Shown one piece after another: positions 4,780 to 58,270 of a stretch of 64,000 nucleotides of DNA (within the stretch, counting starts at the first letter, position 1; every line of letters begins with the position of its first letter). The position numbers and the translations under genes were made by a program. The notes beneath the pieces are model-generated. The model was given only the letters and a program-made list of their open reading frames with translations. It was not told the DNA's origin and did not search any database. This DNA comes from Octopus vulgaris (taxonomy: Eukaryota), in the NCBI GenBank assembly GCA_951406725.2, contig OX597814.1, forward strand, positions 14,198,001 to 14,262,000. The letters run 5' to 3'.

Positions 4780-5256
4780 ATTTGAGAATAAACTATGAGA
4801 TAAAGTTGGAAGAGATTTTGTACAAGATTTTTATATATGTCCTTAACATTCAGTAGTATGTTATGTGAAAAAAAACTCATATATATGGGTAGCTATGGCT
4901 GCATCATTAACAGATTCATTTCGTAACCATGTGATTCTAGTACCTACTCACATCTACCTGCCTGATTTTAGAACTAAATCTTCGGTGTTATTTTTTAAAC
5001 AAACACCATATTACGTTGGTCTAATGGTAGCACACTTAAGGCGAATACATAGAGGTGTGGGTTCGAGTCCTATGCGTACGGAAAACGCAATTGTTTTCCG
5101 TTGAGAGCTTATATGCCCCAATATTAAACAATTTTCCCTAGTCAATACATGGTAATCGCTTATAAGCTCTAAGCTTATAAAATATTATTCTTTACAGAAT
5201 TGCAATACGTCAACCCTTCTCAATTTATCGTAGAAAACGCATGCTTATTTGTTTAA
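4780..5256 (-). mobile_element. TA-flanked putative PLE terminal fragment with hammerhead-like motif
   Basis: Bounded by TA tracts; minus-strand TAACA-CCGAAGA...CGAAATGAATC-TGTTA at 4908-4990 reads toward the left TA tract, as in the other PLE termini here. Confidence 0.45.
5012..5078 (+). pseudogene. tRNA-like sequence (Pol III A/B boxes), not a functional tRNA
   Basis: A box TGGTCTAATGG, B box GGTTCGAGTCC, T-arm GTGGG/CCTAT, partial acceptor TACGT/GCGTA; anticodon arm does not pair. Confidence 0.55.
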
Positions 5257-6505
5257 TATATATATATATGAGTTAGCGTGTGTATTGCTCAACACAACAT
5301 ATTTCAATATATATTGTGAGAGTTTTGGTTGGTATATTCTTGCTGCTAAGCAATAACCAACTTTCATGTTTATTAACCCGATATATTTTCCATATACCTA
5401 GTTATCTATTCATAGTTATCACTTTCCTTCTCTCCCTCCTCTCTCTCTTTATATACATACAAACGTGGGTTTCTATCTTATTTCGCTTTAACAGAAAACA
5501 ATTGAAATCTGTATGTGTTTGTTTTCATACCCGCAACTTAACGATTTTGTACTTAAAACGAGTATTAGGATCGATTTTAGCAAATGAAACCAAGTCATAA
5601 AAATATTATGATTGTTGAAATTTGAAACAGAAAAATTTCCTAACCCATAGAGTTAACCTCTTATCTATGATAGTAAAGAAGACAACACGTTTAAAGCAAA
5701 GATCATTTCTAATTTAACCTTCCTGTAACACTTTTAAATTAATCTATTGATTGAATACTGAACTGAAGTAATGAGGTTCATGACCCATACATAAAGCCAC
5801 TATAGCAATAATTTGATATTAAAAATTCCTACATCTGCTTATCAGATATCAAAAGCATTCATCACTGAACCCATAAACATTGTAAACATATGAAAGCATT
5901 AAGCAGCTTTTTCTATCCAATATTCGTGAATTATTCGTTCTGTGGAGTAACACTGATTATAGTGTAAATACTTGTATATAATGAATAATATGTGGGTTCG
6001 TATGTCTGTTTGCTAGTGTGTGTGTGTAAGTTCATAGATATATGGTTATAGATAAATGAGAAGTACAAATTCACATCATCAACTGCAATTCAAAGCAGAA
6101 TTTTAGTGGTATACTAATTTAAGCTCTCAGAATGCATACCTATTAGTTCGAGTTACACAGACAAAATCTCCCCATATCTTACACACATACACACACACAC
6201 GCACACACACACACACACTCACACATACCCCCCACACACATATACACACACACATATATATATATATATATATATATATATATGCAAATTTAGGTCAGTT
6301 AGTTAAAATATGTTTGTGACATATTTCAACGTCTAAAGACAAATTCTCTGTAGTTACCGAGTACTAAAATTTTCTCTTATGGATTCCCAGGCGCATTTCT
6401 AGATCTTTAGCAATTACCAATGGGAAGTACCGAAGAGAGGCAACTCTGGACCGCAGCGCAACTCTGAGTTGCGCCAATTTACATTTAAAAGGCATTCATG
6501 TTGGA

Positions 6506-7158
6506 AATAGTACGTAAATATTAATGACTTGTAGGTACGTGGCATTTCCTTATGTAAACATAATATGCTATAAATTATATTAAACGTTGTCATGAGACAA
6601 TACCACGTTCTCCTGCGTTAGCAGCGCGCTTTTCTACATTATTTATTAAGTTTATCTCTATAGATAATCTAGAGAAACTACAGCCGGCACTGCTTTGCTT
6701 CGACGTTTCTTATTGACATGTCAGGTTTAAACAATGTGATGGAATATGATAAAACTGGCAATGAGTGTATTCCTCTTCCATGAATGCGATTAATATGTAA
6801 ATTGGTGTATCCAGTTCCTACACACCACTAGATATAGTGGATATTTAAGCAATGTGTTCAAGAATGATTAATGGGTTAGATGGGTGCTGATAAAGGGGCG
6901 AAACCGCACGAAATATGGCATAAACGCCCATCACCTGTTATGCATCTGACGTCTCGATACGAAACTTGGTAGCAAAAATCTATAGTTTATATAGATTATA
7001 TACAGAGATAACCATATAAATAATGTAGAAAAGTTCACTGTGTTAATGCTGCAGAACGTCGTATTGACTTATGAAAACGTTTAATATAATTTATAGAATA
7101 TTATGTATGCATAACGAAATACCACGTACCTACATGTCACTAATATGTAAATAGACTG
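6506..7158. mobile_element. MITE / non-autonomous DNA transposon with ~170 bp diverged inverted repeats (Tc1/mariner-like end)
   Basis: About 6510-6680 is the reverse complement of about 6982-7155 (e.g. TGTAGGTACGTGG/CCACGTACCTACA, CTATAAATTATATTAAACGTT/AACGTTTAATATAATTTATAG); right end reads TA-CAGT on the minus strand. Confidence 0.7.
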
Positions 7159-8246
7159 TACGGGAGGTTAGGAGAAAGTATTCTCAACTCAAAAGCCTGG
7201 CCCAGCAGCCAGCGAAAGACTGGACTCTGCTAAAAGCACTCCAGATGACTGGTGGTGGTCTTTAAATGGGTAATAGTTTAAGTGCAGCATTTACGTTAAC
7301 TGTAAAATGATTTGAAATCAAAGAAATAGAACAAACAACAGAAAACTCCGATTTCGATCTTTTTAAAGCTTCACCTATGCACATCTCTGGTTTGGTATTT
7401 TCTTTCTATCGAAACCGAAATGATGATAGACAAAGTTGAGATTTGATGAGCGCAGAGATTCGAAACTAATGCCGCGAAGTATTGTGTGTGGCACTCTAAT
7501 AAATCTGCCAATTCATCATTCTATGTGTGATATGACACATTTATAGCTGATGGTTACATTGAATTAAGTGTAAGCACATATCCCCGCTGTGGAGAAAAAA
7601 GTTATTATGATGAAAAAAATATATATGTTTATTCGAAAAACGTAGATATACAATATAGAAATATACGCCCGATCACTTAATGTCTTTCTAATATATTTAT
7701 TTCATGAATATATATATACATCATAATTTTTCATTTTTGTTTTTTTTATTTTAGAAAACAATTTTCTTTGGGAAGACCACAGTAAACGACCTCGAAATCT
7801 ACATTTTCCCATATCTGATTTAGACAATACAATTTATCGTAAATGGTTCTAAGACCTCACTATTATTCATTGTAGAATAAATGGAACTAGTATGCCAAAT
7901 GTTTTGAAAATAAACGACAACTTGCAAGTAACACCGGAGTTTTGTGGGATCGGTTTATAAGGAAGCAACGTATACCGGAAACAAAACTGCTATAAAGCTA
8001 ACTATTTATGTGATATATACATGTGTGTGTGTCAGTGTGACTGTCTGCGTGTGTGAGTGAGCATATGGAATATGTATATATCTGCGCGCGTGTGTGTGTG
8101 TAACTATATATATTGATATACGCATAATTTGTCTAAGTGGCGGTGTTCTCGTTTTGTCGTGATACTTAAAACATATCTATAAAAAGCATCATTTTCTCAT
8201 CGTCTCACAACAATGATTTTAATGTTTAAATATTTGAATTTCCCAA

Positions 8247-8820
8247 GGCGGCGAGCTGGCAGAATCGTTAGCAGGCCGGACGAAATTCTTAGCGGTATTT
8301 CGTCTGCTGCTACGTTCAGAGTTCAAATTCCGCCGAGGTCGACTTTGCCTTTCATCCTTTCGGAGTCGATAAATTAGGTACCAGTTATACACTGGGGTCG
8401 ACTTAATCCGTCTGTCTGTCCTTGTGTGTCTCCTCTGTGTTTAGCCCCTTGTGGGTAGTAAAGAAATAGGTATTTTGTCTGCCGTTACGTTCTGAGTTCA
8501 AATTCCACCAAGGTCGACTTTGCCGTTCATCCTATCCGGATCGATTAAATAAGTGCCAGTTATGCACCGAGGTCGATGTAATCGACTTAATCCGTTTGTC
8601 TCTCCTTGTCTGTCCCCCACTGTGTTTAGCCTCTTGTGGGTAGTAAAGAAATAGGTATTTCGTCTATCTTTATGTTCTGAGTTCAAATTCCGCTGAGGTC
8701 GACTTTGCCTTTCATCCTAATGGGGTTGATGAATTAAGTACCAGTTGCGTACTGGATCGATATAATCGGCTGGCCCCCTCCCAAAAAATGTAGGGCCTTA
8801 TGCCTAGAGTAGAAAAGAAT
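8247..8820 (+). mobile_element. tRNA-derived SINE family A, internal tandem trimer
   Basis: Head GGCGGCGAGCTGGCAGAATCG; body GAGTTCAAATTCC...GAGGTCGACTTTGCC repeated three times with 175-185 bp period. Confidence 0.85.
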
Positions 8821-56668: not shown

Positions 56669-56750
56669 AATATATATATACACATGTATATACATAGACA
56701 TGAGGGTTGTTGAAAAGTTCTTGGCTTTGGGCAAAGGCAAATACTGGAAA

Positions 56751-57188
56751 GAGGAAGAAGAAGAAGAAGAAGAAGAAGAAGAAGAAGAAGAAGAAGAAGA
56801 AGAAGAACAAGAACAAGAACAAGAAGAAGAACAAGAACAAGAACAAGAAGAAGAACAAGAACAAGAACAAGAAGAACAAGAAGAAGAAGAAGAAGAAGAA
56901 GAAGAAGAAGAAGAAGAAGAAGAACAAGAAGAAGAAGAAGAACAAGAACAAGAAGAACAAGAAGAACAAGAAGAACAAGAAGGAGAGCAAGAAGAAGAAG
57001 AAGAAGAACAAGAAGAACAAGAAGAAGAACAAGAAGAACAAGAAGAACAAGAAGAAGAACAAGAACAAGAACAAGAACAAGAACAAGAACAAGAACAAGA
57101 AAAACAAGAAGAAGAAGAAGAAGAAGAACAAGAAGAACAAGAAGAACAAGAAGAACAAGACGACGACGACGACGACGACGATGATGAT
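56751..57188. repeat. Compound (GAA)n/(GAACAA)n/(GAC)n repeat
   Basis: Read directly from the sequence; the source of the poly-E/K/F/L pseudo-ORFs. Confidence 0.95.
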
Positions 57189-57764
57189 TTACAGACTCAC
57201 TGCGGCAACGGACTTTCCCCTTCAGAAATACTGATGTCACGGTCAATTTAATGATCCTTTCTGCTCTAGGCACAAGATCTATCGATTGCATCGACCTCAC
57301 CTCCTGACCTGTTCATTTTTACTAACCCCAAAATGCACACACATGCATCAAGAAGTGCTATCAATATAGAAAGCAATGTTATTTCTATAGCTAAAAATTA
57401 TGGTTATATTATGCATATATATATATATGTATATATATATATATATATATATATATATATATATATATATATATATATATATATATATATATATATTTAT
57501 TCTGTCTGTTTTGCTAGAAAGAGGTAGAAACTGATCAGTCCGTGATATATCGTTAATGGTAAATGTTTTTGATTTTCACTCTCGATGAATTTATCCCTTT
57601 TTTGTGTCCCTAGCACTTGGCATCCTTATTTAGGAGCCCTTAATTATATTTCTATATGAATAATATTTTGTCTAATGACTAATTCGTCTTTTGTGCTGGG
57701 CCACTGGTAGTAATCTACGTTATTACCCTCTTTTGATTATATATATATATATATATATATATAT

Positions 57765-58270
57765 ATAATATTAATTAGAGACAAAACCACTATTATGCAA
57801 ATCAAACAAAGAAAGACTTAATCCAATACATAAAAAAATTTTAATTAAATATAATTAAGATATCCACTACGATCGTTTCTTGTCACTTCAATGGACATTC
57901 AAAATTGNNNNNNNNNNNNNNNNNNNNNNNNNNNNNNNNNNNNNNNNNNNNNNNNNNNNNNNNNNNNNNNNNNNNNNNNNNNNNNNNNNNNNNNNNNNNN
58001 NNNNNNNTGGACATTCAAAATTGCATAGAAGGTATTGAAACCACCTGATAGAATGTCCATTGAAGTGACAAGAAACGATCGTAGTGGATATCTTAATTAT
58101 ATTTAATTTAAAATTTTTTTATGTATTGGATTAAGTCTTTCTTTGTTTGATTTGCATAATAGTGGTTTTGTCTCTAATTAATATTATATTATATTTTACT
58201 ATAAAATTGGATTCAATCCTAAATCTGATTTTTCCCTGCAAATTTGGATTTCTTCCCTAATATTTATTAT
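57765..58270 (+). mobile_element. Fold-back PLE terminus with hammerhead-like motif at 58041-58087; assembly gap at the centre
   Basis: About 57765-57900 is an inverted copy of about 58051-58187; CCAC-CUGAUAGA-A-UGUC..GACA-A-GAAA-CGAUCG-UA-GUGG; TA flanks. Confidence 0.75.
57908..58007. other. Assembly gap (100 N)
   Basis: N run; TGGACATTCAAAATTG is present on both sides. Confidence 0.99.

Follow-up and report, generated by a model that had tools for sequence, protein, structure and literature searches.

A window of 64,000 nucleotides of the Octopus vulgaris genome (assembly GCA_951406725.2, contig OX597814.1, positions 14,198,001 to 14,262,000 of the forward strand) contains eight short motifs that resemble the minimal hammerhead ribozymes of Penelope-like elements (PLEs) and deviate from the canonical core CUGANGA. 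Are these deviations fixed in the families to which the motifs belong, or do they reflect decay of individual copies, and could RNAs with such cores still cleave? Searches of the 2.8 Gb genome revealed two new lineage-fixed states: U4C in the Hydra family represented at 43880 and A6U in the family represented at 22618. The element type was already known, and we provisionally regard A6U, shared by about 19,000 copies (extrapolated from a hand count of the first 100 matches listed) of a lineage that is still intact, as a notable new state.

Core sequences of the hammerhead families

Seven of the eight motifs belong to dispersed families with 148 to 1,479 first-look candidates each, 40 of which were scored per family; the families are named here by the first window position of the motif. 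All seven have the order stem I, core, stem II, GAAA, palindromic stem III, NUH, stem I, which fails in the eighth motif, at 4908, in the absence of stem II.

The first-pass annotation treated the eight cores as a repertoire of variants, allowing that some might be decayed copies. Decay was indeed found in two families. The window copy of the 20787 family (20435..20981 (+), hammerhead at 20787-20845, N17 at 20839) has CAGACGA, which was present in one copy, and CUGANGA was present in 19 of 23 copies (family core CUGACGA). In the 58041 family (58014..58264 (+), hammerhead at 58041-58087, N17 at 58083), 24 of 27 copies have CUGAUGA, and the 1-nt insertion (CUGAUAGA) is confined to the window copy. 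Two other families were uniform, with UUGAAAA in 31 of 31 copies of the 34593 family (34126..34713 (+), hammerhead at 34593-34630, N17 at 34627) and UUGAUAA in 20 of 20 copies of the 50334 family (50287..50807 (-), hammerhead at 50334-50379, N17 at 50340); the counts for these four families refer to the best-scoring loci. Both cores are of the U3-A8 type already published for Schistosoma PLEs, where UUGAUAAA and UUGAAAAA are listed (Cervera and de la Pena 2014, PMC4209133), and are not new.

The 14476 family, an old repeat family with a 3' end at 14307..14559 (-) (hammerhead at 14476-14533, N17 at 14481), gave 383 matches when the core was left free. Position 4 was U in 67, C in 32 and A in one of the first 100 listed, and the window core CCGAUGA represents a minority U4C sub-lineage of a mostly CUGAUGA family. 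On the contrary, C4 was found in 98 of the first 100 listed out of 3,600 matches of the 43880 family, for which CCGAAGA is fixed; its window copy (43569..43977 (+), hammerhead at 43880-43939, N17 at 43934) is the 3' end of a young Hydra-clade PLE. The motif of the 22618 family is CUGUNGA-A-GAGC-GUAG-GCUC-GAAA-CG-UH. The window copy at 22452..22737 (+) (hammerhead at 22618-22653, N17 at 22650) belongs to the Neptune-like A6U lineage and is a 3' end that has lost its 5' part; it has CUAUAGAA, a version of the family core CUGUNGA decayed by an additional G5A.

The family consensus, proposed in the first-pass annotation as a check, is therefore canonical for 20787, 58041 and most of 14476 and carries lineage-fixed changes in 22618 and 43880. 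None of the eight copies is canonical, as had been stated, but this does not hold for several of the families or for the window, since a ninth, overlooked hammerhead at 63819..63870 (-) has the canonical core CUGAAGA (a relative is present in locus L185). The expectation that a CUGANGA search would miss ribozymes was correct: tens of thousands are missed in the U3-A8, U4C and A6U families, including about 19,000 A6U motifs and about 10,000 and 3,500 U4C motifs in this one genome, as estimated from the first 100 matches listed per pattern.

The A6U lineage

A search of the genome with the stem II-GAAA-stem III word of the 22618 family gave 17,870 exact matches, and 20,386 were found when the core and loop were left free; the control gave 0 in both cases. 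Among the first 100 listed of the 20,386 matches, all from one contig, position 6 was U in 94, A in four and C in two. C3 was found in all 100, U4 in 96 and G5 in 99, and N7 was occupied by A (26), C (21), G (11) or U (42). In a tree of 98 rows based on the flanks only, many deep forks of which are weakly supported, the copies form a ladder along which N7 passes from a pyrimidine through G, A and C to U and N17 from A through U and A to U, with U6 constant. Rows with A6 and C6 are among the oldest, and the youngest branches have lengths close to zero.

For a per-site test, 110 copies were retrieved with no more than four mismatches, and the tree was again built from flanks only. No changes on internal branches were found at the 27 positions from C3 to U16.1, except for N7 (6 changes). 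N17 changed five times on internal branches and was G in one of the 110 copies. The 153 flank columns had a mean of 1.95 changes, and 31% had none. Loop II (GUAG) was as invariant as the core. Freedom at N7 and N17 together with the NUH rule is the established hammerhead consensus, which is expected of catalysis and not of mere folding. The 110 copies of the A6U lineage follow this pattern, with N7 and N17 free, N17 not G and the rest kept, in a block that is partly fixed by the retrieval. Two small retrievals of local scope that were blind to the motif gave similar results: among copies found by the downstream flank alone, U6 was present in 11 of 11 that retained the motif (13 matches), and in the youngest subfamily it was present in 28 of 28 (30 loci).

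The state of position 6 in relatives was assessed with an outgroup of 80 related reverse transcriptases (RTs) of other hosts, taken from metagenomes, 28 loci of which yielded 32 motifs: 25 CUGANGA, five UUGANAA and two CCGANGA. U6 was found in none of the 32, all of which keep A6, and shuffled sequences gave 0, 0 and 0 matches. The two CCGANGA motifs are located on contigs L457 and L519 and may be products of decay.

A sister family with the same stems had 14,917 matches; among the first 100 listed, A6 was present in 98, C4 in 69 and U4 in 30. No open reading frame (ORF) was tied to this family in 29 copies, which gave one weak match. One stem I pair appears to covary between the A6U lineage and the sister family (C-G/G-C). 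A covariation test found six two-sided cells, a result reached in 1 of 500 shuffles, although the 13 rows compared are related and kinship inflates this figure; stem II never varied among these rows. Copies of the sister family have a 3-nt loop II (L033:2776-2812(-), L043:1060-1096(-)), and those with CCG form a derived clade (99/84).

Elements carrying the motifs

Most copies listed stop at a base that is specific to the family, with (TA)n beyond it. Their 5' part is truncated, and an inverted partner with a short tail is frequent; the same layout has been reported for PLEs (Craig et al. 2021, PMC8557442). On the coding strand, the motif precedes the fixed 3' end by about 40-190 nt, and it is present in both pseudo-long terminal repeats (pseudo-LTRs) of tandems; partial tandems with pseudo-LTRs were found in loci L228, L147 and L520. 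The assignment of the motifs to minimal type I hammerheads of PLE-type ends was supported. The view that all of them mark retroelement termini was partly borne out: seven lie near the ends of high-copy repeat families, four of which are tied to PLE ORFs, and 4908 has no family. The inverted copies mentioned for two motifs were also located, at 34010..34121 (-) for 34593 (hammerhead at 34070-34107) and at 43076..43568 (-), with a tail of about 70 nt, for 43880 (hammerhead at 43177-43239). The 58041 element has an inverted partner as well, at 57757..57901 (-), interrupted by an N gap.

The 22618, 34593, 43880 and 50334 families have ORFs for RT and GIY-YIG endonuclease (EN) upstream on the same strand. 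The 22618 motif was tied to a Neptune-like EN about 1.1 kb upstream in locus L081, and L228 contains an intact tandem A6U element with a frame of 1,214 amino acids (aa) from stop to stop, a DKG motif, an RVT_1 match above and a GIY-YIG match below the cut-off. The 34593 family is represented by a young tandem element that has two ORFs, one of 437 aa and one of 705 aa for RT/GIY-YIG with a CX4CxxC linker, and 59 of 63 scored RT copies were free of stops. Both families show the Neptune features: DKG, the CX2-5CxxC linker and a C-terminal EN. A related RT thumb and GIY-YIG domain with a CX2-5CxxC-type linker lie upstream of the 50334 motif; DKG was not seen in this fragment. The single ORF of the 43880 family with RWK, DKT, CxCX5C, CxxC and CxH motifs, the 2.58-kb period and the (TA)n target correspond to the definition of Hydra. 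Therefore, the 43880 family belongs to Hydra, and the 22618, 34593 and 50334 families are Neptune-like as judged by protein motifs.

The 437-aa upstream ORF of the U3-A8 Neptune-like family (L147:4874-6184(-)) is separate and has no Pfam match. The catalytic motif of the Hydra-family RT is YKDD (L520:828-2981(-)); the published Hydra rows inspected have YRDD.

Another candidate explanation, that variant cores account for the hammerheads reported absent in Naiads, was rejected for the four ORF-linked families. They are not Naiads because their EN is C-terminal, whereas Naiads have an N-terminal GIY-YIG and DKA. Naiad hammerheads were reported absent by CUGANGA-based searches, and such absences may need to be searched again with relaxed descriptors.

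No linked ORF was found for the 14476 (45 copies), 20787 (24 copies) and 58041 (28 copies) families; one EN match, of doubtful linkage, lies upstream of a 20787 copy. These three families are likely non-coding derivatives. The 20787 family is retrozyme-like, with a unit of about 490 nt, a canonical family hammerhead and partial tandems in the window (20276-20981) and in loci L062 and L064. Members of the 58041 family (L127-L146) share a common 5' end, which precedes the cut site by about 66-82 nt, and form an element of about 270 nt that resembles short interspersed nuclear elements. They often occur as head-to-head hairpins, and further 3' fragments are present in the window at 22206-22352 (-) and 22374-22461 (+).

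Detection of the motifs above chance

The window has a GC content of 35% and about 85 (TA)5+ tracts, and a repeat search of it was dominated by microsatellites. All eight strings were present at the coordinates and on the strands given in the first-pass annotation, which also pointed to their orientation towards (TA)n. Proximity by itself is weak evidence, because (TA)4 lies within 200 nt downstream of 23% of window positions, but the families stop at a fixed base before (TA)n in most copies listed.

A first strict descriptor recovered none of the eight motifs in the window and found only 63819; shuffled sequences gave 0-2 matches each. A relaxed descriptor, tuned post hoc when the motifs were already known, gave five matches in the window, whereas 20 shuffles averaged 0.3. 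Across 726 kb of fetched loci it gave 198 matches in 26 clusters, most of them the target families themselves, and none in 379 kb of shuffled sequence. With Rfam, no hammerhead appeared among the 150 of 274 rows listed for the window, and five family loci gave no match at the gathering score. Several further hammerhead families met incidentally (L298, L291, L046, L318 and others) have stem II inserts of 40-70 nt, beyond the published descriptors of minimal hammerheads.

Possible activity of the variant hammerheads

PLE hammerheads cut poorly in vitro and are dispensable for insertion in the one reconstituted system. The free positions N7 and N17, together with the near-absence of G at N17, lead us to favour, by a modest preference, residual catalysis: the seven motifs would be minimal type I hammerheads near 3' ends, and the core changes fixed in several lineages (U3-A8, U4C, A6U) would probably leave a slow ribozyme predicted to act only as a dimer. 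RNAs of the A6U lineage would probably self-cleave only slowly. Among natural hammerheads, those with U3-A8 are active, and low activity remains in U4C (viroid) and A6C (phage, kobs <0.1/min) variants (Perreault et al. 2011, PMC3088659). Metazoan PLE hammerheads were reported to cleave weakly and as multimers only (PMC4209133). In the mechanism that we envisage, the same pseudo-LTR stands at both ends of a tandem transcript, and the palindromic stem III would pair between two repeats, forming only between copies. Rapid cleavage of the 3' copy would detach the ORF from the terminus of 40-190 nt at which copying starts, so that slow cores may be tolerated or favoured. An occasional cut could trim read-through RNA or permit circles.

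Several observations weigh against this reading. In a mutational scan, every mutant of the CUGA turn, single or double, had low activity except the C3G/G8C swap (PMC9901934), and A6U may consequently be effectively dead. Position 6 takes A, C and U among the old copies, so that U6 is tolerated, though not necessarily selected. The invariance from G8 to 15.2 is partly built in, because most copies were retrieved with patterns that specify these positions, and the tree was built from the same flanks that were used for comparison. Moreover, of 21 long A6U copies examined, 19 had matches, and 17 of these read at least 400 nt through the 5' cut site. Nor was there a clear excess of junctions at the cut site genome-wide, where 34 were found for A6U compared with 25 in a shifted control, mostly with TA microhomology, and 27 compared with 21 for U3-A8, ten of the 27 being one internal deletion; the test and control patterns differ in efficiency.

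The remaining two long A6U copies begin at +46 and +441, and none begins at the cut. Of 3,360 downstream matches for A6U, 3,156 retain the upstream 8 nt; seven exceptions were inspected and consisted of five point changes and two truncations (-6 and -22). In a full-length search of 20 U3-A8 loci, five extend out of the pseudo-LTR as far as ORF1, each of them from -110 or further, one starts at +160, two are only end pieces and 12 gave no match. Insertions that do not begin at the predicted cut indicate that the inserted templates were uncut, or circular and religated, which the junction test cannot separate. Furthermore, the U3-A8 family, with a core type known to be active, also lacks a junction excess, and thus the junction test does not distinguish live from dead ribozymes. 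These results agree with the report that ribozyme-dead mutants leave insertion of an anole PLE in vitro unaffected (PMC11167929). An apparent genomic trace of cleavage, two short inverted matches starting 1-3 nt past the cut and two of ten inspected U3-A8 copies starting at it, was rejected after it failed genome-wide against shifted controls.

Some data were not used as evidence. Minimum free energy folds of monomers gave stem II in most motifs and not the full hammerhead, and homodimers gained 8-13 kcal/mol in a calculation without a control. Contigs of four public runs showed no other letter at position 6, which was not counted because the same data missed the known N7 variation.

Among the alternatives, the one that survives best is that the fold in the A6U and U4C lineages is kept without cutting, for RNA dimerisation through the palindrome or for binding of the RT/EN protein. 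We consider it unlikely. The low activity of CUGA-turn mutants (PMC9901934), the lack of a junction excess, the fixation of loop II GUAG to the same degree as the core and the dispensability of cleavage for one PLE in vitro (PMC11167929) are in its favour, but it does not account for the avoidance of G at N17 (1 of 110) or for the absence of internal changes at C3, U4 and G5 while N7 changed six times, and the junction result is uninformative given the behaviour of the U3-A8 family.

Still less likely is compensation, by which the variant cores would cut at normal PLE rates owing to the dimer context, the extra A after A9, loop II or an element protein. The variant families are among the most amplified here (20,386 matches, 14,917 with C4 in 69 of 100, and 3,600), and in the Hydra lineage U4C is accompanied by a C-to-U change directly before GAAA relative to older CUG copies. 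However, A6 and C6 copies have the same stems and loop as U6 copies, so that no compensating change tracks A6U, and the published double mutants failed to rescue the turn (PMC9901934).

Carriage of dead ribozymes, with substitutions that hitchhiked on a few successful master copies, is improbable: a ladder-like tree, the fixation of neutral changes in single master lineages and the bias of the retrieval patterns towards intact motifs would allow it, but a dead motif is expected to drift like the flanks, whereas the block is unchanged along the ladder except for N7 and N17, the flank-only retrieval agrees, and in the four public runs the contig depth is highest over the motif, where it exceeds that of the flanks several-fold.

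We tentatively suggest, with doubts outweighing confidence, that a Neptune-like PLE lineage held A6U under selection through many masters and that other lineages gained U4C independently. In this case, either A6, a base regarded as invariant, would be dispensable in the dimer context, or PLEs would retain the hammerhead as an RNA pairing module whose cutting is tuned down or lost. Recently amplified whole lineages with U4 and A6 substitutions and canonical sisters on the same stems are natural controls, and if A6U is under selection, the natural matched A6/U6 and U4/C4 pairs could decide the purpose of PLE hammerheads.

Comparison with known hammerheads and elements

The motifs share with the minimal hammerheads of PLEs (PMC4209133) the type I topology, the short stem I, the extra base between 9 and 10.1, the palindromic stem III, the pseudo-LTR position, the occurrence mostly as single truncated copies and the nearby inverted pairs. 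The published descriptor starts with cuganga, whereas the families described here, with thousands of copies each, have U4C or A6U fixed. When one of the two supplementary files of that study was searched by terms, no CCGA or CUGU core appeared. Natural hammerheads with U3-A8, with U4C and with another change at position 6, A6C, are known to have reduced or retained activity (Perreault et al. 2011, PMC3088659). They are described as rare cases in viroids, phages and bacteria, and section 8 of that paper does not include A6U; here, in contrast, about 19,000 copies carry A6U, which has persisted for a long time. Among the openly accessible papers listed in literature searches, neither a natural A6U hammerhead nor a family-fixed U4C in PLEs appeared, and the novelty of both is provisional.

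The protein of the 43880 family is close, by eye, to Hydra-1_Obim (Craig et al. 2021, PMC8557442). All Hydra hammerheads in File S2 of that study begin with CTGA, while the young intact 43880 lineage has CCGAAGA. The 22618 and 34593 families share with the Neptune clade DKG, the RT, the CX4CxxC linker, the C-terminal GIY-YIG and the microsatellite target; the A6U core of the former and the separate 437-aa upstream ORF of the latter are differences. The 20787 family is similar to non-LTR retrozymes (bioRxiv 10.64898/2026.07.22.740005) in its unit of about 490 nt, type I hammerhead, partial tandems and lack of a linked ORF, but occurs mostly as single truncated copies.

Other features of the window

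The string at 4908..4990 (-), CCGAAGA...GAAA...AUC, has neither stem II nor a family. No helix closes stem II, the family search matched only the string itself (1 of 1), and its 19-mer was found in itself and one unrelated place, compared with two control matches. A post hoc descriptor of the same grade gave 0.05 matches per shuffled window. The string may be an old relic or a product of chance; its inclusion among the variant ribozymes was not supported. A damaged second copy of the A6U lineage, absent from the first-pass annotation, is present at 21076..21130 (-) and has CUGUCGA but lacks GAAACGU.

The window also contains an open 709-aa frame at 58767-60896 (+), which we take to encode an RT of the long interspersed nuclear element type. 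Judged by motifs in the same way, a putative PLE-like RT remnant is located at 17249-17623 (-), a Tc1-like transposase fragment at 48102-48503 (+) and an RT zinc-finger fragment at 28735-29193 (+).

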